Part shown: piece after piece, positions 2,850-50,833 of the stretch | Position numbering within the stretch: the stretch's first letter is position 1 | Layout: every line of letters starts with the position of its first letter | Origin: Myxococcota bacterium | Lineage (GTDB): Bacteria > Myxococcota_A > UBA9160 > UBA6930 | NCBI GenBank assembly: GCA_965223415.1 | Contig: OZ245002.1 | Coordinates: forward strand, 5,440,001-5,504,000 | Direction: 5' to 3' | Length of the DNA stretch: 64,000 nucleotides | Program-made: the position numbers and the translations under genes | The notes under the pieces: generated by a model | What the model saw: the letters and a program-made list of their open reading frames with translations, nothing else | What the model was told of the DNA's origin: nothing | The model's database searches: none

Positions 2850-3704
2850 TCAGGGCGTCTCGAGCGACGATCCCTGGATCGAGGAGCAGTGAAGCGCCAT
2901 CTCACTGTACTTGTCAGCGAGAGCCTCCATCCCCGGTGCGATCTCGACATCGTGGGGCGTGTAGCTGGGCATGTAGATGCGGAGCAGCCCCGGAAACACA
3001 TCGCGGACCCTGCCGGATCGGGGAACGAGGGATGCCTCCCTCAACTCCGCCTTCTCCCGTGCGCTGCGCTTCGGCGGCGGACGCACGGACATCATGTACT
3101 TCACCACGCGGCGCACCCATCTGGAGAAGTGGAGTTGGGCCCAGGTGCCGACGGCCAGGCGATAGAGGTAGCCGCCGCAAACGTGATCGTAGACGTCGAA
3201 TGCGACGGTGCGATGCTCCAGCTCTTCGACGAAGTGCCACTCCCACATCTGCAGGAAGGTGGGAAGGTCTTCGCCGAAACCGTTCGGTTCCATCAGGTGC
3301 TTGACCACGTGCATCGTGAAGGCTTCGAAGCCTTCCGCGTACGCGAGGTTGAAGCGCAGCGACTTGGTCTTGGAGAATCGGTGGTAGTCGTCCGAGAGCT
3401 CCTTCTCCAGCGTCTCGAGTCCGGGAAAGCCCGAGCGGCGGATGGTCTCATTGAACTTCATGTGCATCCGGTAGTGCTGGCCCTCCTGGGCGGCGAACCC
3501 CTTCAGGCCCTCGAGAACCTTCGGATCGGTGACATGGCTCTGTGCGGCCTTCATCGACCGAATCAAGTAGGGCTCCAGGTGCGGGAGCAGGAGCGAGGCG
3601 GCGATGAAGGTGAACGACTGTTCGTGATCGCCCTCGATGAAGACCGGGTCGATCTCATCAGGAAACTCGAACGGCATCCGTCGGACGGTGATGGTGTCCA
3701 GCAT
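2850..3704 (-). CDS. Predicted metal-dependent hydrolase
   Basis: QEGQHYRMH and WHFVEELEHRTVAFDVY motifs; GAGGAG RBS before ATG 3704. Confidence 0.85.
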   Translation of the reverse strand: MLDTITVRRMPFEFPDEIDPVFIEGDHEQSFTFIAASLLLPHLEPYLIRSMKAAQSHVTDPKVLEGLKGFAAQEGQHYRMHMKFNETIRRSGFPGLETLEKELSDDYHRFSKTKSLRFNLAYAEGFEAFTMHVVKHLMEPNGFGEDLPTFLQMWEWHFVEELEHRTVAFDVYDHVCGGYLYRLAVGTWAQLHFSRWVRRVVKYMMSVRPPPKRSAREKAELREASLVPRSGRVRDVFPGLLRIYMPSYTPHDVEIAPGMEALADKYSEMALHCSSIQGSSLETP

Positions 3705-3754
3705 GGTTTCTCCTCGGGGCAAAATGCAACTCGGCCGCACTGGGATGTTCGACA

Positions 3755-4573
3755 TCATCCGTCGTCTTCATTCCAGAACAGACGCGCCGCGTTCTGGTAG
3801 AGAAAACGATCGAGGACCCCGGGGCGAAGGTCGAGCTTTCGCGCCTCTTCGACACATCTGGGCATCTGAATGGCCGGATGGTCGGACGCGAAGATGGTCT
3901 TCTTCTGGCCACGCGTATTCATGAAATGAATCAGCTCGGGCGGGAAGTGCTTGGGAAGGTAGGCCGACGTCATCAGGTGCAACCCGGGATACTTGAGCAT
4001 CAGGCGAAACGCGACCTGCCACCACGGATCGGCGCCGTGGGCCATCACGAGCTTCAATTCTGGAAAGTGGAGGCAGACCCGATCGAGGAACATCGGGTTC
4101 TGGCATTCGCCCGGCACCTGTGGCCCGGGAATTCCGGTGTTGATCGTGATGGGCAGGTCGAGCTCGATGCACTTCGCATACACCGGGTAGTAGATGGCGT
4201 CGTTCGGTGGGATGTCGAACAAGAAGGGGGTGATGCGCGCCAGCACCACCGGGTGGTCCCGTCGGAAGGACTCGAGTGCGCGGAGTGTCTTCATCCCGCG
4301 GCGTGGGTTCAGCTGGGCGCCGAGCGAGAACCGTTCCGGGTGCTTCTCGGGAAACTTCATGACGTGCTCGGACGGCTTCGCGGGATCCGTCGTCAGGATG
4401 GCCCGCGCGACGCCGCAGCCATCCATCATGTCGAGCATCTCCTGGACTTCGTAGTTGCGGAAGAAGTCCTCGCCCTGCTTGAAGTAGTCCTTCCCTACCT
4501 GTTCCAGGTAAGCGGGCCGGCCGAACTCGGCCACGTTCACGTTCACCCAGCAGTCGATTGCGCGCGGCGCCAA
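3755..4573 (-). CDS. Amidohydrolase_2 family protein
   Basis: YYPVYAKCIELDLPI, MAHGADPW and FASDHP motifs; TTG start. Confidence 0.88.
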   Translation of the reverse strand: MAPRAIDCWVNVNVAEFGRPAYLEQVGKDYFKQGEDFFRNYEVQEMLDMMDGCGVARAILTTDPAKPSEHVMKFPEKHPERFSLGAQLNPRRGMKTLRALESFRRDHPVVLARITPFLFDIPPNDAIYYPVYAKCIELDLPITINTGIPGPQVPGECQNPMFLDRVCLHFPELKLVMAHGADPWWQVAFRLMLKYPGLHLMTSAYLPKHFPPELIHFMNTRGQKKTIFASDHPAIQMPRCVEEARKLDLRPGVLDRFLYQNAARLFWNEDDG

Positions 4574-4634
4574 GGTCTCTTCCTCCGGAAGGGTGGGCGG
4601 CCGCGAGGCAGCCTATCATATTTGAGATCTTTTT

Positions 4635-4663
4635 CTGTAAATCATTCTCTAAATGATCTACAG
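4635..4663. promoter_or_regulatory. Palindromic operator candidate in a divergent promoter region
   Basis: CTGTAAATCATT-CTCTA-AATGATCTACAG, 12-bp arms with 1 mismatch, in an AT-rich intergenic patch. Confidence 0.6.
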
Positions 4664-4719
4664 TAGGTCCCACGGCCGAGCTTCGGCTCACCGCAACCGC
4701 CGATGGGAGCCTGCAGCGC

Positions 4720-5907
4720 ATGAAGTTCGGAATCTTCTACGAGCACCAGCTGCCCCGGCCGTGGACGGACGATGCCGAGCATCGGCTGATGAAGGACTCG
4801 CTCGCCCAGTGCGAGCTCGCGGACAAGCTCGGGTACGACTACGCGTGGGAAGTCGAGCACCACTTTCTCGAGGAGTACTCCCACTCCTCGGCGCCCGAGG
4901 TCTTCCTCGCCGCCGCGAGCCAGCGCACCGAGCGGATCCGGCTGGCGCACGGAATCATCCAGCTGACGACGAACCACCCGGCGCGAGTGGCCGAGCGAGT
5001 CTCCACACTCGACCTCGTCAGCGACGGGCGCGTGGAGCTCGGGATCGGTGAGGGTTCGACGTCGACCGAGCTGCACCCGTTCGATCGGCGATTCCGCGAC
5101 AAGCGGCCGGTCTGGGAGGACGCCGTTCGGGCGCTCATCCCGATGTTCACGGAGCCGGTCGCCGAGTATCACGGAACCCACTTCGACTTCCCGCCGCGCA
5201 ACGTCTTGCCGAAGCCGTTGCAGAAGCCGCATCCGCCCTTGTGGGTGGCGTGTTCCCAGCTCGAGACGATCCAGATGGCGGGGATGCGCGGCATGGGCGC
5301 GTTGGGCTTCCAGTTCGCCTCGGCCGACACCGCGACGAAGTGGGTCCATGCCTACTACGACGCCTACCTGAATCAGCTGGACAAGCTCGCGGACTACCAG
5401 ACGAACCCGAACATCGCCGTCGTCTCCGGCTTCATGTGCGCCGAGACCGACGAAGAGGCCCTGCGAAAGGCCGATGGTTGGACCTTCTTCCAGTTCGCGC
5501 TCCGGTACTACGGGAGCAAGGGCGTGCTTCCCCCCGGAGAAGTCTCGCTCTGGGAGGAGTACGAGAAGTGGCGGGCGACGCCGGAGGGCCAGAAGCAGAG
5601 CCGCACCGGGCTGATCGGCTCGCCCGACACACTGCGGCGTCGTCTCCGCAAGTTCGAGCAGTCGAACGTGGACCAGGTCATCCTGCTCAATCAGGCTGGC
5701 AAGAATACGCACGAGGACATCTGTTCGAGCCTCGAGTTGTTCGCGCGCGAAGTGATGCCGGAGTTCCACGGTCGCGACCCGGAACACCAGGAATGGAAGC
5801 GCGCGGTCCTCAACCGGGAGCTCGTACTCGACCGTCCGGACACGACGCAGCCCGAGGACACCACCGCTCTCTTCAAGCCGACGCAGCCACCGTCCTCGGG
5901 GGCGTGA
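4720..5907 (+). CDS. Luciferase-like (LLM) flavin-dependent oxidoreductase
   Basis: MKFGIFYEHQLPRPW, VEHHFLEEYSHSSAPE and PKPLQKPHPPLW motifs. Confidence 0.92.
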   Translation: MKFGIFYEHQLPRPWTDDAEHRLMKDSLAQCELADKLGYDYAWEVEHHFLEEYSHSSAPEVFLAAASQRTERIRLAHGIIQLTTNHPARVAERVSTLDLVSDGRVELGIGEGSTSTELHPFDRRFRDKRPVWEDAVRALIPMFTEPVAEYHGTHFDFPPRNVLPKPLQKPHPPLWVACSQLETIQMAGMRGMGALGFQFASADTATKWVHAYYDAYLNQLDKLADYQTNPNIAVVSGFMCAETDEEALRKADGWTFFQFALRYYGSKGVLPPGEVSLWEEYEKWRATPEGQKQSRTGLIGSPDTLRRRLRKFEQSNVDQVILLNQAGKNTHEDICSSLELFAREVMPEFHGRDPEHQEWKRAVLNRELVLDRPDTTQPEDTTALFKPTQPPSSGA

Positions 5908-10303: not shown

Positions 10304-11383
10304 TCATTCGCCCGCCGCGGCGGACTGAAGCCGCGCCCGTCGACGGATCTCCGAAGGCGCGCATTGCGCCCAGCGCTTGAACGCCTTGCGGAAATTCGAG
10401 GCGTCCTCGAACCCGACCCGTCGCCCGATCTCGTCCACGGGAATGCGCGTGTTCTCCAGATACTCGACCGCCACCGACAAGCGTGTTTCATCGACGAGCT
10501 GCTGGAAGCGAAGCCCGTCGTCGCGAAGACGCCGGTAGAACGTCCGGAGGGATAGACCGAGGTTCTTGGCGATCTCAGGTGCGGTCGAAGCATACCCCTG
10601 GCGCGCGAGGCAGAGCCTTCGAACGTCCCGAGCAAGTCTCGTTTCCCCGACGCCGCTCGACACGATGCGTTCGCAGAAGTCCTGACACACGCGTGCGGTG
10701 GCATCGCTCGCCTCGGGACAGGGCCGTTCCAGAACGGCCGCATCGAAGTGCCACTCCATCACATCGCTGGCGAAATGGATCGGACATCGGAGCGCGTCGC
10801 GGTACGCCGCTGCGTGGGCAGGCGCTTCGTACGGGAAGTACATCGCGCTCGAGGGGAAAGGCGCCCCGACCACGTAGCCGAGTAGCGTCGACATCGAGCT
10901 TCGCCAGAACTCGGCCACGAATGGGAGCGCACTGCCCAGCGAGTGCGCATCGTGGGAGCGCAAGACGCCCACGTCGCCCTGCAGCTCGAAGGTGATGCGC
11001 AGGACGGGACCGGCGAGCTCCAGGTGCTCGAGACCGAACTCGAACGCTTCGCCGACGGTACGACTCGTCAACAGCGCATAGCCGAAGAGGCCGAAGTCGC
11101 TGATGCGCTGCCGCGCGCCGGCCCGCAGGGCCGTGTCAGGCCGTCGTGCGAGGCGCTCGGCGCTTCGCAGCAGCGCAACTCGCCGACCATGATCGATCGG
11201 GTGCTCGGAACTCAACGCGTCGCCCAATGTGACGCCCGACGCGGAAGTCCATGCTCGGTGATCGATGCCCTGCTCGGCGAGCTCGCGGCCGAGCGCGTCG
11301 AGTCCGAAGCCGAGGGAGGCTCCGGACGAGAGGTCAACGGGGACTTCCGGACGTTCTCGTTGAATGGGCAGCTGGGAGGGCAC
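10304..11383 (-). CDS. AraC-family transcriptional regulator (arabinose-binding-like N-domain)
   Basis: FGLFGYALLTS, SLRTFYRRL and VGFEDASNFRKAFKRW motifs; start uncertain. Confidence 0.9.
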   Translation of the reverse strand: MPSQLPIQRERPEVPVDLSSGASLGFGLDALGRELAEQGIDHRAWTSASGVTLGDALSSEHPIDHGRRVALLRSAERLARRPDTALRAGARQRISDFGLFGYALLTSRTVGEAFEFGLEHLELAGPVLRITFELQGDVGVLRSHDAHSLGSALPFVAEFWRSSMSTLLGYVVGAPFPSSAMYFPYEAPAHAAAYRDALRCPIHFASDVMEWHFDAAVLERPCPEASDATARVCQDFCERIVSSGVGETRLARDVRRLCLARQGYASTAPEIAKNLGLSLRTFYRRLRDDGLRFQQLVDETRLSVAVEYLENTRIPVDEIGRRVGFEDASNFRKAFKRWAQCAPSEIRRRARLQSAAAGE

Positions 11384-11427
11384 CGGCCGACGTTCCTCGC
11401 TATTCGCTCGAGCCTTCGAGCCTAGGA

Positions 11428-11463
11428 TGGCACGATTTCACTCGATGATTGGCAGGATATCAC
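11428..11463 (+). promoter_or_regulatory. Tandem direct repeat, probable AraC-family binding site
   Basis: TGGCACGATTTCAC / TGGCAGGATATCAC (12/14 identical, 22-bp period) between the AraC gene and the divergent operon. Confidence 0.6.
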
Positions 11464-11521
11464 CTCACAGTCGGTGGCGCTGTCGCAGATACTCCTGGTG
11501 CCCGTCGAGCAGGAGTCCCCG

Positions 11522-12940
11522 ATGACGACCCAGCCCCCCATCGAAGCCCTGTCCCAACGACTCCGATCCCAACGCGCCGCCTTCGCCGCGGAGCCGTACC
11601 CGACGCTGGCTCGGCGGCGCGAGTGGATCGATCGCATCCTCGACATGACCGCCCGCTACCAGCACGAGATCGTCGAGGCGGCACACGTGGATTTCGGGGG
11701 CCGCGCGCCGGCCGAGACGACCATGGTCGAGGTCTTCGGAACGACCGCCAACGCGCGCAACACAAAACGCCGCCTGAAGAAGTGGATGCGCGCTCGCCGG
11801 ATGCCCACCGCGCCGCCCTTCCGGCCCGGCTACAACCGTCTCATGGCGCAGCCCGTAGGCGTCGTCGGTGTGATCGCGCCGTGGAACCTCGCCTACAACC
11901 TCTCGATGGGGCCGGCGATCGCAGCGTTTGCCGCGGGGAACCGTGTCATGTTGAAGCCAAGCGAGATCACGCCGGCCAGTGCCGAGCTGATCCGTCGCAT
12001 GGTCGGCGAGAACTTCGACCCCGACGAGTTCGACGTCTTCCCGGGTGGTCCGGAGCTGGCTGCTGCCTTCTCGGAGCTTCCCTTCGACCATCTCCTCTAC
12101 ACGGGATCGACGTCGATCGGTCGGCGCGTGGCCGAGGCCGCCGCGCGCAACCTCACGCCGGTCACGCTCGAGCTCGGCGGCAAGAGCCCCGTCATCATCG
12201 ACGACTCCGCGGACTTCAAGCGAGCGGCACGGCGCATCGCGTTCGCCAAGCTCCTCAATGGCGGCCAGATCTGCATCGCCCCCGACTACGCGCTCGTGCC
12301 GCGTTCACGGCGTGACGAGTTCGCCCAGGCGGTCATCGCGGAGGCGTGTGACCTCTACCCCGACGCCACTACGAACGACGACTACTGCTCGATCGTGTCC
12401 GACCGGCATCATGAGCGCCTGCTCGGGCTGTTGTCGGAGGCGAGAGCCGCTGGCACCGAGGTGTTGAACGTGGCGCGCATCGAAGAGAGCCACGATCGCC
12501 GGATCCCCATGCAGATCCTGCTCGACCCGGACGAGAAGCTCGGCGTCATGAAGGAGGAGATCTTCGGGCCGCTCCTGCCCGTCGTCTCCTACGAAACGCC
12601 CGATGAGGCCATCCGCTACGTGAACGAACGGCCGCGCCCCCTCGCGCTCTACTGGTTCGGCCAGGATCAGAAGCGTCGAGAAGAGGTGCTCCACCAGACG
12701 ATTAGCGGTGGCGTCACGATCAACGACGCGATCTGGCACTTCGCCCAGGAGGACCAACCCTTCGGCGGTGTCGGCGAGAGCGGCATGGGCGCCTATCACG
12801 GCGAGGCGGGCTTCCGCACCTTCTCGAAGGAGAAACCCGTCTACCACTCGGCGGCGTGGCCGTACTCGATGGCGATGTTCCAACCGCCCTATTCCGACCG
12901 CACCCTGAAGCTACTGGAATTCCTGCGGCGGATCGTTTGA
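11522..12940 (+). CDS. Aldehyde dehydrogenase (coniferyl-aldehyde DH-like)
   Basis: TLELGGKSP, NGGQICIAPDY, EEIFGP and PFGGVGESGMGAYHG motifs; AGGAG RBS. Confidence 0.92.
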   Translation: MTTQPPIEALSQRLRSQRAAFAAEPYPTLARRREWIDRILDMTARYQHEIVEAAHVDFGGRAPAETTMVEVFGTTANARNTKRRLKKWMRARRMPTAPPFRPGYNRLMAQPVGVVGVIAPWNLAYNLSMGPAIAAFAAGNRVMLKPSEITPASAELIRRMVGENFDPDEFDVFPGGPELAAAFSELPFDHLLYTGSTSIGRRVAEAAARNLTPVTLELGGKSPVIIDDSADFKRAARRIAFAKLLNGGQICIAPDYALVPRSRRDEFAQAVIAEACDLYPDATTNDDYCSIVSDRHHERLLGLLSEARAAGTEVLNVARIEESHDRRIPMQILLDPDEKLGVMKEEIFGPLLPVVSYETPDEAIRYVNERPRPLALYWFGQDQKRREEVLHQTISGGVTINDAIWHFAQEDQPFGGVGESGMGAYHGEAGFRTFSKEKPVYHSAAWPYSMAMFQPPYSDRTLKLLEFLRRIV

Positions 12941-44288: not shown

Positions 44289-45671
44289 ATGGCCTTCTCG
44301 CGCTGGCGCGACCACGACCACACCCGCGGCAGCCTGCTCACCTCGATCCTGGCGCTGGCCGTGCCCTCGATCGTCACCTCGGTCGGCGCCATGGGCCTGT
44401 TCCAGATGGTCGACCTGTGGTTCCTGGGCCAGCTCGGGCCGGACGCCCTGGCCGCCGCCGGCGCCACGAACCAGACGCTGCGCCAGATCATCTTCCTCGT
44501 GACGATGGGGCTGATGACCGCGACCCAGATGTTCGTCGCCCGCAGCATCGGCGAAGGCGCCATCGACCGCGCCGAGCACACAGCCGGCCAGACCCTGCTG
44601 ATCGGCACGGGGATCTGGCTGGCCGTCACCGCCCTCGGCCTCTTCGCCGCCCGCCCGCTCGTGAGCCTGGTCGCGACCGACCCGGCGGTGATCGACCTGG
44701 GCGAGGCCTACGTGCGCGTCGCCTTCCCGTTCATGGCCGCGGCCATCTTCACCCAGCTCGCCTCGGCGGTGCTGGGCGGCGCAGGCGACACGACCACCCC
44801 GATGATCGCCAGCTTCGTGCAGACGCCCATCGCGCTGCTCGGCGAGTGGTGCTTCGGCTTCGGTCACCTGGGAGCCCCGAACCTGGGCATCGTCGGGATC
44901 GCCCTGGGCACGGGCCTCGGCGGTTTGGCGGGCCTGGCCGTGCTGATCGCCGCCCTCTTCCGCGGCGGCGCCCGCGTGCACGTGCGCGCCCATCACCTGC
45001 GCCCGGACCTCCGCGCCATGGGCGACCTCCTGCGCTTCTCCTGGCAGCCGGCGGCGCACATGCTGGCCCGCAGCACCATCGTCGTCTTCTTCATGACCCT
45101 CGCCGGAAGGCTCGGCGGCGAGGTGCAGGCCGCCTACACCATCGGCCTGCGCGTGGAGATGCTGCCGATCATGGTGGCGTTCCCGATCGCCAACGCCTGC
45201 GCCACGATGGTCGGCCAGAACCTGGGCGCGGGCTCCCTGCCCCGGGCCTGGCGCGCGATCCGCGTCACCTTCGCCGTCGAGCTCGCCGCCATGTGGCCCG
45301 CGGCCCTGGCGATCTTCCTCTTCCGCCACACGCTCGTCGGCTGGTTCACCGACGATCCGGAGGTCGCGCGCCTGGCCGCCGAGTACCTCGTCTACGCCTC
45401 CGTGATCCTCGCCTTCTACGGCCTCTACTTCGCCTCCTTCCGCGCGCTCCAGGCCGCCGGCGACATGACCTCCCCGATGGTCATCTCGATCAGCGTCGCC
45501 GGCTTCCTCGGCATCCCCCTGGCCCTCTACCTGACCGGCACCGACTACGGCGCCACCGGCATGTGGATCGCGAACCTGGCCTACGCCCTCGTGAACGCCC
45601 TGCTGATGGTCGGCTGGCTCCTCACCGGACGCTGGGCGCGGCCCCACGTCCCGGATGCGCCGCCAGGATAG
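44289..45671 (+). CDS. MATE-family transporter
   Basis: Multi-TM protein; GAGDTTTPM, VGQNLGAG and AAGDMTSPM motifs. Confidence 0.9.
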   Translation: MAFSRWRDHDHTRGSLLTSILALAVPSIVTSVGAMGLFQMVDLWFLGQLGPDALAAAGATNQTLRQIIFLVTMGLMTATQMFVARSIGEGAIDRAEHTAGQTLLIGTGIWLAVTALGLFAARPLVSLVATDPAVIDLGEAYVRVAFPFMAAAIFTQLASAVLGGAGDTTTPMIASFVQTPIALLGEWCFGFGHLGAPNLGIVGIALGTGLGGLAGLAVLIAALFRGGARVHVRAHHLRPDLRAMGDLLRFSWQPAAHMLARSTIVVFFMTLAGRLGGEVQAAYTIGLRVEMLPIMVAFPIANACATMVGQNLGAGSLPRAWRAIRVTFAVELAAMWPAALAIFLFRHTLVGWFTDDPEVARLAAEYLVYASVILAFYGLYFASFRALQAAGDMTSPMVISISVAGFLGIPLALYLTGTDYGATGMWIANLAYALVNALLMVGWLLTGRWARPHVPDAPPG

Positions 45672-45701
45672 AGCGCGGCCGTGGCCTATGTTCCGGAGCC
45701 C

Positions 45702-45775
45702 GGGCGCGTAGCTCAGTTGGCTAGAGCACCTGCCTTACAAGCAGGGGGTCCCCCGTTCGAGTCGGGGCGCGCCCA
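45702..45775 (+). tRNA. tRNA-Val(TAC), CCA not encoded at this copy (attL)
   Basis: GGGCGCGTAGCTCAGTTGGCTAGAGCACCTGCCTTACAAGCAGGGGGTCCCCCGTTCGAGTCGGGGCGCGCCCA followed by GGGG. Confidence 0.95.
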
Positions 45776-46651
45776 GGGGCGCGGGGGCGTCGAAGTGCCC
45801 GGCGCTACAGGCGAAGTGTCGACGCGCTCACTAGGTCGCTCACGGTCGGCTTGACCTGCCGCGACCGCCGGTGCCGCCAGGTGCCGTTCGGAGACGTTCG
45901 TGAGGGCGTCCGCGTAGCCAGTCGTCTCGTCGGGGAGGAAGTGCCCGTAGGTGTCCCAAAGCATCGACGCGCTCTCCCAGCCACCCTGGGCCTGAACCCA
46001 CTTCGGGTTCGTGCCCCGCGCCAGGTGGAGCGTCGCGAACGTGTGTCGCAGTCCGTGGGGGGTCAACCCCCGATCGGCCCCAAGGACATCTTCGACGAGC
46101 TTGTCGAAGGTCCGGCTACGGAAGTTCTTGGGATTGCGGAATCCCCCTTCCCGGGTCGGGAACACCAACGTGTCAGGGCCGAAGAGGTCGGGGCGCCGTA
46201 GCTCCAGCTCATGTCGAAGACGGCCAGACAGCTCGATGCTGCGACTCACTCCGGTCTTTGTGCTCTCCATCAGGTGCTTGCCGCTGGAGAAGCTTCGGCA
46301 AATTCGGGCTTTGCCCGCGTGCAGGTCTACGTCAGCCCAACGCAAAGCGCTCGCCTCGCCGATTCGAGCCCCTGTGTCGGCCATGAATAGGATGAAAGGG
46401 AAGTCGAACGGGAACCGGGCCTGAGCCCGCCTCAGAAACGCGTCAAGCTCGTCTCCAGTCAGGACGTTCTCGGGATTGACCTCACGAGAACGCCGGCCAC
46501 GTCGCCGCCGCCGGTTTCGCATCCAGACCTCTGCCGGATTGCGGGCGATGTGCTCCCTCGATTCGGCATCCGCGAGGACAAGCCGGAGGGTCTTGATGAC
46601 CTTGAGAATCCATACATCGGACCAGACCTCCCGACGGACCCAAGAGCTCAA
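45713..46651 (-). pseudogene. Tyrosine integrase, N-terminally truncated
   Basis: TGARIGE, TKTG, HGLRHTFAT, GGW and DTYGH catalytic motifs; arm-binding and most of the core-binding domain missing. Confidence 0.88.
45870..45886. repeat. GGTGCCG x2, candidate arm-type sites (left)
   Basis: 10-bp period, ~95 bp from the att core; same motif recurs at 50035-50061. Confidence 0.6.
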
Positions 46652-46930
46652 GCCGTCGCTGATGTCATTGGACCGATGATCCCCATCGCCATCGCAAGTG
46701 GAGTAGCATCAACGGTAGTTGCGCCGGTGGCGGCCGGGGGCGTGTCTGTATACACGTCGGTGCAGGCAGGAGCTATCAACTACGTCGGCATCACGAACAA
46801 GATTGCGAGACGGGCTGGTGAGCAGCTCCTCGAGCGAGGCATCGCGATTCGGGGAGTTCCGGGCCTTGAGAACTTGACGCGTCTACAGGCGCGAGGAGTT
46901 GAGCAGGCTCTCATAAACTCCCTAGGTCTA

Positions 46931-48589
46931 CTTCCCGTCCGAGAAGAGCCGTTCGTCGGCCTCTTAGTGGATCGTTGGCGGTCTTCGCGGGCGTTGAGAG
47001 TAGCGATGTCACAGCAGTCCCGGAGCCGTCGGGGTGAGTGAGCGACCGTGTTCCGATGCGCGGGCGCACGTGTCCACCGACCGAACCACTCTCAGGGGTT
47101 CAGGCGAACTCGCGAGTCAGCAGGTGGCGGGCCAAGGCGACGAGGTTGAAGCTCGTCACACTGGCCCAGACATAGGCCTTGAAGGACGCCAGGCCCCGCC
47201 AGGTGCATCGGTCCATCTGGAACGCTCGCTTGAGCGTCGAGATCACGCCCTCGATCCCCGAGCGGAAGTCACGAAGGCGCCGGAAGACCCAGGCGCTGCG
47301 CACCATCTCGTGGACCTCGAGTCCGCTCTTCTTGTTGAAGGCCATGTCTTCCACGCCGAGCGCCTTGGCCTTGGCAACGTTGTCCATGGACGCGAAGCCT
47401 CCGTCCATCGCCACTTGGCGGGGTGCCTTGCCGAAGAGATCTGCATGGCGCTCGAGCGTACGTTCGACCAGCGTCGAGTCCGTAGGGTTTCCTTCCTCGA
47501 TGACACAGTCGAGGACGAGTGACGACCTGCCGCCAGTCAGACAGACCTTGTGACCGTAGTAGGTGCCTCGATTGTCCTTCACGAGGATGTCCGAGTGCGG
47601 CTCGAAGATCGACACGATCTTCTCGGCTGCAGGGACGCGCTCGCCTTCGAGGACACGGCGACGGCTCTGATCGATGACGCGCTCGACGAGGGGAAGCACC
47701 GCGAGGAGCTCTTCGCGAAGCGGCGTCGTGTCTTCGACTCGGGCGACCCTCTCCGCGACGCTACGGGCCGCTTGGCAGACCTCTTCCGTGGCCCGGATCA
47801 TGCACCGATAGCTCGCGACCAGGTTGATCGACCGCCGGTGGAACTTGATCGCGTAGGCGCGTCGCTTCACGCAACGACGACGATCCGGGAACATCTTGCG
47901 CAGCGAAGGGCGTTGCTTCGCCATCCTTCGCAAAATCCGCGTCATCACCCGAACGCTGTCCCAGAGCAGGGCCGAGTCGGCGGGCTCGTGGATGTTCGCC
48001 TCGACGACCGTCGTATCCGCCCGAATCGTCTCGCCTCGTTCGATTCCTTCCCGGCGAGCCAGGCCGATCAACGCACGGTGGATGGCTTCCCACGTCTCGG
48101 GCCGGATCCGTTTGACGTTGTCCTGAAGGGTCTGGAAGCGGGGCCAGTCACCAAGCCCGAGTCCTACGAAGCTGCGGAAGGCGGCCGAGTCCTGGAGGTG
48201 AAACTCCAACTCCCGGTAGCTCAGCCCGTGGATCTGCTTGAGTAGGGCGATTCGAAGGACCTGATCGCCGCTGAGGCCCCGACGGCCGGTATCGGCGCGA
48301 CGTTCCCCGATCAGATCTCCGTGCACAACAGCACCCAAGCGCGGATCCGCCCCGAGGATCCTGGCGATCATCTGCAGCTCTCGGGTATGTTGATGCGGAC
48401 CCCATGTGGGCGTGAGTGAGAGCTGAGTTTCTCGGAATTGGCGCATCGCTTCACCCCCCGGTTGGCGAATTGCTGTGTATGTTCGGTAGGTTGGCACCAC
48501 CTAACATACACCAATCGCAACTCGATCGGGAGGCGCGTTTGCGCCAATTCCTTTTCTTCTCAGTGACTTACGAGTTCTTGGACGGGAAG
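46931..48589 (-). mobile_element. Insertion sequence (~1.66 kb; IS5-like/ISNCY DDE type)
   Basis: Terminal IRs CTTCCCGTCC(G/A)AGAA (14/15); flanking duplication TAGGTCTA at 46923-46930 and 48590-48597. Confidence 0.92.
47100..48446 (-). CDS. DDE transposase
   Basis: SYRELEFHLQDS, RADTTVVEANIHEPADS, EKIVSIFEPH, MDGGF and FRSGIEGVIS motifs. Confidence 0.93.
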   Translation of the reverse strand: MRQFRETQLSLTPTWGPHQHTRELQMIARILGADPRLGAVVHGDLIGERRADTGRRGLSGDQVLRIALLKQIHGLSYRELEFHLQDSAAFRSFVGLGLGDWPRFQTLQDNVKRIRPETWEAIHRALIGLARREGIERGETIRADTTVVEANIHEPADSALLWDSVRVMTRILRRMAKQRPSLRKMFPDRRRCVKRRAYAIKFHRRSINLVASYRCMIRATEEVCQAARSVAERVARVEDTTPLREELLAVLPLVERVIDQSRRRVLEGERVPAAEKIVSIFEPHSDILVKDNRGTYYGHKVCLTGGRSSLVLDCVIEEGNPTDSTLVERTLERHADLFGKAPRQVAMDGGFASMDNVAKAKALGVEDMAFNKKSGLEVHEMVRSAWVFRRLRDFRSGIEGVISTLKRAFQMDRCTWRGLASFKAYVWASVTSFNLVALARHLLTREFA

Positions 48590-48741
48590 TAGGTCTAGCG
48601 AAGAACGGGGGATCTCTTCTGAACAAGATCAACAGCATTTCGCCGAAGAACGCCAACTACAACGCGTTGGTTCGGGAAGGCCAGCGGCTCCTGCGGAGAG
48701 CGGGGTTCCCGGGCTTCTAGAGGGACTCACGTAGGGGCAAC

Positions 48742-49209
48742 ATGACAGTCAAGAAAGCAAGGCCTGGCGATGTGTTCGAAATCGGCACCAGCCGCGGCCT
48801 CGCGTACGCGCAGATCACTCACCGTCACAAGCAGTACGGCCATCTGGTACGCGTCCTGCCAGGGCTCTTCCCTGCGACTCCCAGGGACCTCGGAGGTCTT
48901 GTGAGTGAGCCGGCCGCGTTCGCAACATTCTTCCCGCTCGACGCCGCGCTGAGGGCAGGGGTTGTCAAGGCGATTGGGAACTACCCGATTCCACGCTCAG
49001 CAGCCGGCTTTCCGTTGTTCAGAACTGGCGTTCCCAATCCTGCAACCGGCGAAGTGGAGACGTGGTGGTTTTGGGACGGCGAAAGGGAGTGGCGTGTCGG
49101 TTCGATCTCTGACGAGCAGCAGTCAATGCCCATCAGGGAGATCCTCACGCTCCCGACGCTTGTGGAGAGGATCGAGGATCAGGAGGCAAAGGGGGGCGGC
49201 TCCGGTTAG
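48742..49209 (+). CDS. Probable immunity protein (Imm26-like)
   Basis: GDVFEI...GLAYAQ...YGHLVRV and WWFWDGEREW; lies directly downstream of the toxin stop. Confidence 0.7.
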   Translation: MTVKKARPGDVFEIGTSRGLAYAQITHRHKQYGHLVRVLPGLFPATPRDLGGLVSEPAAFATFFPLDAALRAGVVKAIGNYPIPRSAAGFPLFRTGVPNPATGEVETWWFWDGEREWRVGSISDEQQSMPIREILTLPTLVERIEDQEAKGGGSG

Positions 49210-49225
49210 CCTTGCCGGCGAATCA

Positions 49226-49627
49226 ATGGGTGCATGGGGCGTAGGCTGCTTCGACAACGATGACGCTGTTGATTGGCTGAATCGGATCATTAGCGCGGAG
49301 GACGGTCTGCTAGAGGTCGAGGGGGCGCTTCAAGCTGTGGTTCATGACTCCGCCGCTGAGTACGTCGACGCACCGGAAGCCTGTGAAGCGTTGGTTGCGG
49401 CTGAGGTTGTCGCAGCCTTGTGCGGAAGTCCCGCGCGCCATCTCCCCCCCGAGTTGATCGCCTGGCTGAGCGGGAAGCCTGTTGCCGACAATGACACCCG
49501 AGGTCTCGCACGCGAGGCCGTCGAGCAGATCGGAATACGATCAGAGCTGCGAGAGCTGTGGGGCGAGTCCGGTGAGCTAGCCGAGTGGTTCTCGGTGCTA
49601 CGCGACCTGGCCGATCGCCTTCAATAG
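49226..49627 (+). CDS. DUF4259 family protein
   Basis: MGAWGVGCFDNDDAVDW, ALVAAEVVA and SELRELW motifs. Confidence 0.85.
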   Translation: MGAWGVGCFDNDDAVDWLNRIISAEDGLLEVEGALQAVVHDSAAEYVDAPEACEALVAAEVVAALCGSPARHLPPELIAWLSGKPVADNDTRGLAREAVEQIGIRSELRELWGESGELAEWFSVLRDLADRLQ

Positions 49628-49858
49628 TGCGAAGGCGCTTCGGTGTCGGCTGTCGCGTGGCGTACGAATGTTGAGCCAGCGGTCGGCGGGAGGACCGAGA
49701 ATGGCCGCAACGGACTGCCATGGCGGGTGCTGATCGGGCACGCGGATTTGGAGTGCCGGCGGTCGAGGTCTTGTCCCCCAGGGGAATAGCCACTCCCGGA
49801 GGTTCTCCAATTTTCGAGAGGTCCCACTGACGAAACCGAGGGGGGTCCGTGGGTGGGT

Positions 49859-49886
49859 CCCCCCCCCCCCCCCCCCCCCCCCCCCC
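49859..49886. repeat. Poly-C homopolymer (28 nt)
   Basis: Seen directly in the sequence. Confidence 0.9.
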
Positions 49887-50034
49887 TGGTGCCGGCAGGG
49901 CGGCCCAGCACATGCGGCACAACCACGTGTAGGGTCCGCCTGGGGGGCGTCGGGGCGTCACCGGCGCCCTGCCCTGCTCCCTCGCGCAGCCGCTTGGCTG
50001 AGCCGCGTTGCACGGCCGCGTGTCGCATCCAGAA

Positions 50035-50061
50035 CAGGTGCCGTCAGGTGCCGCGGTGCCG
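50035..50061. repeat. (CA)GGTGCCG x3, candidate arm-type sites (right)
   Basis: CAGGTGCCG-T-CAGGTGCCG-C-GGTGCCG. Confidence 0.6.
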
Positions 50062-50117
50062 TCCCAGGATCATCACGGTTCCGCACATTGCCGCTCCCTG
50101 CAGAGGCCCAGACACAA

Positions 50118-50755
50118 GTGACTGCTCCCCCGGCAAAGCCGGGGGCATCAGGTGAGCCGCTCAAAGCGGCTGGACGGGGCCGCTTCGCGACCCCTTGCGC
50201 CCCCCTACGGGGGGCAGTGATCCACCGAACTTCAGCTGATCCTGCTGGCGGTCCTCGTTCTCCTGATTCTGGATGTACCGCCGGATCACCTCTTCGTCTC
50301 GCCCCACCGTGGACGCGAAGTAGCCCCGCGCCCAGAAGTGATGCCCCACGAAGTTCCGGCGCCTTTCGCCGAAGTGCCTTGCGATGTGGATCGCGCTCTT
50401 CCCCTTGAGATACCCGATCACCTGCGCCACGGCGTACTTCGGTGGAATCGAGATCAGCATGTGCACGTGATCATCCATCAGATGGCCTTCCTCGATCTCG
50501 CTCTCCTTCTGGCGGGCAAGCCGATGAAAGACCTCCCCCAGGTGCCGCCGGAGCGTCCCGTACAGGACCTTTCGACGGTACTTCGGGATGAAGACGACGT
50601 GGTACTTACACTCCCATTCGCTGTGCTGTAGCTTCCGATGGTTCGACAAGATGCTCCCTCTCGCGATGCTTTGAGCGGCTCACGAGGGGGAGTTTCGCAT
50701 TCCGGAACTGTCAAACTCTGACTGCCTCCCCGGCAAAGCCGGGGGGACTCCCGAC
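50118..50755 (-). mobile_element. IS200-type element (tnpA only); boundaries approximate
   Basis: Subterminal hairpins CCCC(C)GGC-AAA-GCCGGGG(G) at 50127-50145 and 50728-50744 flanking tnpA. Confidence 0.85.
50161..50649 (-). CDS. tnpA: IS200/IS605 HUH (Y1) transposase
   Basis: CKYHVVFIPKYRRK, DHVHM, LKGKS, FWARGYF and YIQNQ motifs. Confidence 0.95.
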   Translation of the reverse strand: MSNHRKLQHSEWECKYHVVFIPKYRRKVLYGTLRRHLGEVFHRLARQKESEIEEGHLMDDHVHMLISIPPKYAVAQVIGYLKGKSAIHIARHFGERRRNFVGHHFWARGYFASTVGRDEEVIRRYIQNQENEDRQQDQLKFGGSLPPVGGRKGSRSGPVQPL

Positions 50756-50787
50756 GGGCTAGGCGTCGTCGTTAGGCCCCTTGTCGT

Positions 50788-50833
50788 CCTTACAAGCAGG
50801 GGGTCCCCCGTTCGAGTCGGGGCGCGCCCACCA
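50788..50833 (+). repeat. attR: displaced 3' end of tRNA-Val including CCA
   Basis: CCTTACAAGCAGGGGGTCCCCCGTTCGAGTCGGGGCGCGCCCA-CCA. Confidence 0.95.

Follow-up and report, generated by a model that had tools for sequence, protein, structure and literature searches.

Whether an integrase favours integration or excision is usually credited to separate directionality factors, with phage Mx8, which targets a tRNA-Asp gene, as the classic exception. In this myxophage, the attachment site of the excised form (attP) lies inside the integrase gene (int), and the gene acquires a new 3' end on integration, a change interpreted as a means of regulating the activity of the integrase (IntP/IntX; PMC6070905; PMC4383910). 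Here we describe evidence which suggests that a compact form of the Mx8 strategy is shared by an entire family of non-phage islands, with at least six tRNA targets. Our starting point is a low-GC island of about 5 kb at a tRNA-Val(TAC) gene, within 64,000 nucleotides of a Myxococcota bacterium (GenBank assembly GCA_965223415.1, contig OZ245002.1, positions 5,440,001 to 5,504,000). We refer to this entire stretch as the window, and positions are numbered from its first nucleotide. A repeat search showed that the island is bounded by an exact 43-nucleotide direct repeat, which is the core of the attachment (att) site.

Mx8 IntP/IntX is the closest known system. In both cases, the int open reading frame (ORF) crosses the att core, integration changes the C-terminus of the integrase (Int), and the host belongs to the same phylum. 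Mx8 Int also holds a stretch that resembles the antisense of a tRNA T-arm (…STGLEPV…), about 110 residues before its end. There are differences as well. BLASTP between Mx8 Int and the family gave only partial alignments, with 24-26% identity and E = 0.001. Mx8 is a tailed phage, while the family's elements are islands with cargo genes (TIR, AAA_21/DUF3696). And Mx8 exchanges about 110 residues, while the Myxococcota island family exchanges 6-10 acidic residues.

Two other systems are more distant. In mycobacteriophage BPs (Clusters G, I, N, and P), the att site is inside the repressor gene, the viral form of the repressor is tagged in an ssrA-like manner, and the repressor made by the prophage is stable, according to PMC4557955. 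As in our family, recombination at an att site within a gene changes a C-terminus; in BPs this decides the fate of the protein, and the BPs integrase also has a C-terminal proteolysis signal (PMC4557955). However, the gene that is crossed is the repressor in BPs and int in the Myxococcota family, and the family has no conserved tag-like end. In archaeal integrases of the SSV type, the recombination site is also within the integrase ORF (PMC7253208; PMC4383910). Integration splits the SSV gene in two, whereas the Myxococcota family keeps the catalytic protein whole and only a short tail changes.

We consider it fairly probable that the window contains a fossil island of a Myxococcota integrase family that makes two Int isoforms, by crossover 6-10 codons before the stop codon, and that the acidic tip of one isoform is functional. 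The site of crossover would be the anticodon loop of whichever tRNA is targeted. In the excised circle (attP), Int would end in a short tail rich in Asp, Glu, and Pro, which is encoded at what will become the far end of the island. Integration would remove this tail and put in its place the residues that happen to be encoded antisense to the 5' half of the tRNA. Our literature search returned no description of a conserved acidic tail on the excised form of an integrase in Myxococcota, and no relevant report of attP at the end of int.

Read-through of int into the target tRNA

The window's int is the remnant of a tyrosine integrase gene. It matches PF00589 over residues 64-237 (E = 1.5e-18; 67.6 bits, versus a cut-off of 27.1). 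Residues R96, K132, H199, R202, W225, and Y235, which we take to be the catalytic R, K, H-x-x-R, H/W, and Y of the family motif, lie in invariant or nearly invariant columns of the alignment. Against homologues of 425-450 amino acids, the alignment covers only residues 18-312 of the frame; about 140 N-terminal residues are gone, including the arm-binding domain and part of the core-binding domain, and the remnant is not a full-length integrase. The original prediction for this locus carried the caveat that this copy is truncated, and it is.

There are no stop codons between the catalytic tyrosine and the att core (the C-terminus is ...RPWARPDSNGGPPACKAGALAN), and the frame continues antisense through the tRNA. 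The integrated form ends in ...PWARPDSNGGPPACK-AGALAN (that is, ...PPACK-AGALAN), with a stop codon supplied by the antisense of the tRNA's D-arm. At the far copy of the core, the minus-strand int frame reads ...ARPDSNGGPPACKDDKGPNDDA (...PPACK-DDKGPNDDA), with its stop at 50759-50761. Here and below, the tail at a far att copy is the direct translation of the int frame as it continues into the island's far end, with no in silico joining of sequences. The original prediction had placed the att core inside the 3' end of int, with no stop ahead of the core and with the frame running antisense through tRNA-Val; ARAGORN, the 43-nucleotide repeat, and translation all agree with this. Translation also confirms both of the tails that it proposed are exchanged on integration.

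The read-through in the window is, by itself, within the range of chance. The 57 codons from the tyrosine to the core are 72% GC, and 39% of shuffles are free of stops (P ~ 0.39). This fits an alternative explanation in which int is merely stop-free in GC-rich DNA and the acidity at the far end arises from a need at the DNA level, such as binding sites adjacent to the crossover, and not from selection on the peptide. We think that this alternative is unlikely, mostly because of the evidence on the tails (see below).

Across the family, read-through is systematic. A protein search found 325 relatives, and among the best 120 of these, whose C-termini we inspected, many C-termini are antisense translations of the 3' halves of tRNAs. 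A scan of species-representative genomes found 60 loci, nearly all of them in metagenome-assembled genomes (MAGs) from Myxococcota or "Deltaproteobacteria." At 23 of the loci, an antisense tRNA lies no more than 400 nucleotides from the end of int, and the int frame enters the tRNA in 18 of the 23. The targets of the 23 loci are tRNA-Val(TAC), Gly(CCC), Arg(TCT), Asn, Phe, and Thr(CGT). All eight of the metagenome loci with an adjacent tRNA read through, although some of these duplicate genome loci. At tRNA-Arg, the frame of entry depends on the clade of int, with two frames in use. The intact homologues at tRNA-Val (P0002, P0003, P0004, and P0009, which is from the sister genome G088 described below) also read through.

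Two observations here count against our reading. In five of the 23 loci (L040, L046, L049, L054, and L061), the frame stops ahead of the tRNA, which also favours the by-product explanation. In addition, the frames in which P0114 and P0007 read tRNA-Val are different ones.

The acidic tail of the excised form

The window can be compared with G088, which is from the same genus. Among 401 Myxococcota genomes, six carry this 3' half of tRNA-Val, and only the window's genome and G088 carry two copies. G088 has the same arrangement of MatE, tRNA-Val, and int, with 74% nucleotide identity over 44301-46402 of the window. Its integrase is intact (435 amino acids) and also ends in AGALAN, and an excisionase-type ORF (HTH_17) lies directly upstream of int. 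At the far end, the homology to the window stops at 50764, which is just inside the last codon of the tail, beside the stop. The original prediction had warned that an element of the insertion sequence (IS) type IS200 lies close to the stop of the attP form. This is correct (one of its hairpins is at 50719-50745), and the element lies immediately beyond the tail. Because the homology to the far end of G088 extends up to 50764, we conclude that the window's acidic tail is native and was not made by the IS200-type element.

Acidic tails at the far end are a property of the family. At nine of nine far att copies that we matched to islands, the int frame continues for 6-10 acidic residues and then stops (Table 1). 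A protein in the database, P0048, ends in ...RRLEG-APDDEE. So the acidic tail that was originally proposed for the excised form of the window's integrase is conserved in G088 and in seven more far copies with other tRNA targets.

Table 1. Tails read in the int frame at far att copies. The hyphen precedes the tail, and each tail is followed by a stop codon.
Locus	Target tRNA	Far-copy tail
Window	Val	K-DDKGPNDDA
G088 (same genus)	Val	K-DDGEPNDDV
L062	Thr	R-DTDDPSE
L151	Thr	R-EGSDDEENQ
L192	Arg	E-DPQDPKE
L206	Arg	E-DPDDPEQ
L207	Arg (other frame)	R-RLDLDEEPDT
L225	Asn	T-GEEEPEE
L230	Phe	S-EDPDTEE

The acidity is specific to the int frame. For the tails at eight sites, translation in the int frame gives Asp or Glu at 30 of 57 residues, but translation in the two remaining frames gives them at only 3 of 114. 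The nominal P value is 3e-32 (binomial test), but the sites are related phylogenetically, so this overstates their independence. At tRNA-Arg, where two clades enter the core differently, the acidity follows the frame of int (L207 versus L192 and L206). The four Asp codons of the window's tail are all retained in G088, two of them via synonymous changes between GAC and GAT. In five tails of equal length, the second codon position is the least variable and the third is the most variable (manual count). Because the acidity tracks the frame of int, a stop codon follows within 6-10 codons at nine of nine sites, and Asp codons are kept through GAC/GAT changes, we argue that there is selection on the peptide. 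These patterns also weigh against the by-product explanation.

Four of the pairs are physically linked: in the window, L062, G010, and G011, both copies of the core and the intervening int are on one contig (the copies are about 13 kb apart in G010 and G011). L207 has about 43 nucleotides that are identical to the 3' end of int from L015, then the core, and then the acidic tail, which is an attP-type junction in a k141 assembly. This fits the presence of excised circles in that sample. Sequence words from this junction occur in one sequencing run, but contigs built from 31-mers cannot bridge a core of about 45 nucleotides, so this match carries no weight either way.

Several observations weigh against selection on the tail, or against our pairing of sites. 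For five of the nine sites, the far copy sits on a different contig from int within the same MAG, which makes the pairing probable and not proven. Some int-adjacent junctions with partial tRNAs have tails that are not acidic (SAANP in L014; 35 amino acids in L042; RAGLRP.. in L017 and L049; FGEFPWASTHVH in P0047; and VA in L045 and L090), and so do two partial tRNA-like copies (G018:C86 and G017:C301). For all of these, no partner site was identified. Conservation between clades also extends into the DNA just past the stop (T[AG]ACGC..CTTAC and then CGGCA-type repeats), as would be expected if the far end were under constraint as DNA, and such a constraint on the crossover-adjacent arm could contribute to the acidic pattern. 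Both kinds of motif, beginning about 40 nucleotides in from the far end, are common to islands that target different tRNAs (L062 at 129-250; L192, L206, L207, L225, and L230). The CGGCA-type repeats resemble arm sites, and the shared motifs are likely to be arm-type binding sites for the integrase. We also asked if a gene on the opposite strand might underlie the tail, and rejected this: there are only open frames of 52-74 amino acids, and the similarity follows the shared DNA.

We did not find further examples from the Val clade. The metagenome scan contained no Val-clade relatives, and a protein search with the C-terminal 91 residues of P0009 had no excised-form Val-clade protein among its 15 matches. 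In the MAGs G006-G009, the only candidates for a Val-clade far att site were two GC-rich matches of 15-19 nucleotides, both in G009. We judged these to be due to chance because the identity is confined to the acceptor end and is followed by long, non-acidic frames.

The part of the protein that links the catalytic domain to the tail is poorly conserved (about 55 residues, from the alignment with homologues). An AlphaFold2 model of P0048, built with 48 aligned relatives, is confident for residues 1-375, and residues 376-439 have a confidence score (pLDDT) of 34-53. The linker is basic, with 7.1 Lys or Arg versus 2.6 Asp or Glu per 35 residues (n = 84 proteins). On this view, the excised form has an acidic tip on a basic, probably disordered tether of about 60 residues. 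This picture describes the protein and is not evidence of function; a poorly conserved linker that is predicted to be disordered would also be expected if the tail were a by-product.

We nevertheless infer that the acidic tip is functional and that its loss on integration alters the behaviour of Int. The likeliest change would be in its activity or in the binding of a partner, which would bias the reaction as in Mx8 IntP/IntX, and not the gain of a degron. More tentatively, the tip may be a sensor of the recombination state: it would be made only by the excised or incoming circle, would be carried on the basic, disordered linker, would control the activity, partner binding, or stability of Int, and would hard-wire directionality across the family, whatever the tRNA. 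We rate this as slightly less likely than not. If it is true, then directionality would be built into the position of the crossover in every element of the family. The signature to look for is an acidic tip of 6-10 residues that is present only on the excised form of the enzyme. There is also an implication for annotation: the true C-terminus of these integrases would be encoded at the island's opposite end, whereas database entries with "antisense-tRNA" ends would represent the integrated-state isoform.

The integrated-state tail and the degron model

The original prediction gave the integrated tail a more active role. It held that integration adds an ssrA-like degron (…ALAN) that is recognised by ClpXP and that the acidic end protects the excised form, so that Int is stable only when episomal. 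We consider this quite improbable. There are reasons to take it seriously: the host's transfer-messenger RNA (tmRNA) tag is ADDNYALAA, and the tails of the window and G088 share three of its last four residues; the acidic tail of the excised form is conserved; and in mycobacteriophage BPs, both the integrase and the att-spanning repressor have C-terminal proteolysis signals (PMC4557955). The mycobacteriophage precedent has the opposite polarity, however, with the viral form tagged and the prophage form stable (PMC4557955).

The tails themselves also argue against a degron. In the Val clade, the integrated tails end in ALAN, ALAS, ALTS, or ALTN, so the last residue is Asn or Ser and not Ala. 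For E. coli ClpXP, altering the last or second-to-last Ala raises the Michaelis constant (KM), according to PMC7652416. P0007 and P0114, which enter tRNA-Val in other frames, end in TPCL and VRQVL. The clades at Thr, Phe, Asn, and Arg have unrelated ends (VSCSTS, VRCSTN, ADCSTD, SIQLSYRG.., and PLLYPTELPG..). We did not find an ssrA-like tag that was conserved among relatives in one recombination state. The read-through and the acidic tail of the original prediction are thus supported, and its ssrA-type degron is not.

Because the integrated tail is fixed by the sequence of the tRNA, selection on the element cannot tune it, which also counts against the degron model. The "ssrA-like" tail is no more than the antisense of the anticodon stem and D-arm of the tRNA. 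The ends are set by the tRNA, they have no degron-like feature in common, and there is no family-wide degron. It is losing the acidic tip, not gaining a tag, that is conserved in the family.

Anatomy of the island and of related elements

At tRNA-Val(TAC), the window holds the fossil remains of a small integrative island that has decayed (Table 2). Its GC content is 0.58-0.65 between the repeats, versus 0.69-0.74 in the flanks. Its neighbours, as identified with Pfam, are a MatE gene on one flank and a flavin monooxygenase gene on the other. The switch is dead in this copy because int lacks its N-terminal portion and two IS elements have invaded the island.

Table 2. Features of the island, in window coordinates.
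Feature	Positions	Strand	Evidence or remarks
tRNA-Val(TAC)	45702-45775	+	ARAGORN; intact after integration
Integrated-state tail AGALAN and stop	45713-45733	-	Antisense of tRNA anticodon-stem 5' strand and D-arm
5'-truncated tyrosine integrase remnant, open frame of 312 amino acids	45713-46651	-	PF00589; alignment with homologues; tblastn range
int-proximal att core	45733-45775		Exact 43-nucleotide repeat and translation; 3' 43 nucleotides of the tRNA, from anticodon loop to 3' end
IS element with 27-nucleotide terminal inverted repeats; DDE transposase (47100-48500)	46919-48601	-	Inverted repeat; PF01609, PF05598
Island cargo ORF, 155 amino acids, no Pfam family	48742-49209	+	Pfam search
Island cargo, DUF4259 protein	49226-49627	+	Pfam search
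IS200-type element; tnpA 50161-50649 (PF01797)	50119-50758	-	Similar hairpin repeats at 50119-50145 and 50719-50745
Excised-form (attP-type) tail DDKGPNDDA and stop	50759-50788	-	Translation; homologous G088 tail
Far att core (displaced 3' tRNA fragment)	50788-50830		Exact 43-nucleotide repeat

The IS200-type element is present in a single copy in the genome, so its ends cannot be set by comparing copies. Its att-side end is bounded to 50746-50763, from where the homology to the far end of G088 stops. Beside the truncated 5' end of int there is an ORF on the + strand (46550-46933 and about 48602-48720) that is split by the DDE-transposase IS; the piece of it that we tested does not match any Pfam family, and the two cargo ORFs of Table 2 lie downstream of it. 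A run of 28 C lies at 49859-49886, between the DUF4259 gene and the IS200-type element.

Other elements of the family look like cargo islands and not like prophages. We rejected a phage origin, as a scan of IMG/VR did not find any member of the family and tblastn against cultured phages did not find any match to the integrase family above 32% identity. The intact 13-kb island L011, at a tRNA-Arg, contains a TIR-domain gene and a gene for an AAA_21/AAA_15 and DUF3696 ATPase (430-1593 and 3506-4882), which look like defence-type cargo.

In a large clade of the same integrase family (L020 at 10765-11829 on the - strand; L016, L022, L035, L081, and others), the target is not a tRNA. Instead, the int frame (…GPRSPIMHFTEPPPFFRNSETS…) runs antisense through the 3' end of a gene for a 354-amino-acid protein that ends in …EFLKKGGGSVKCMIGDLG…. 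The tails of this second class of targets contain PRSPIMHFTEPPPFF. Rfam had no matches in five such loci, and the target is the antisense of the protein-coding gene.

We also note some signs of repeated insertion. L015, L039, and L049 have extra partial copies of att, of 21-36 nucleotides, between the end of int and the complete tRNA and about 100 nucleotides upstream of the tRNA, which suggests that they were left behind by insertions at this tRNA that were earlier or in tandem. In L075, a single tRNA-Asn has two copies of the integrase upstream of it (at 5717 and 10553), with about 5 kb between them. Divergence of the inner copy sets in ahead of the core (…APTR, then VTDPRHG and a stop), so it is a rearranged or tandem remnant.

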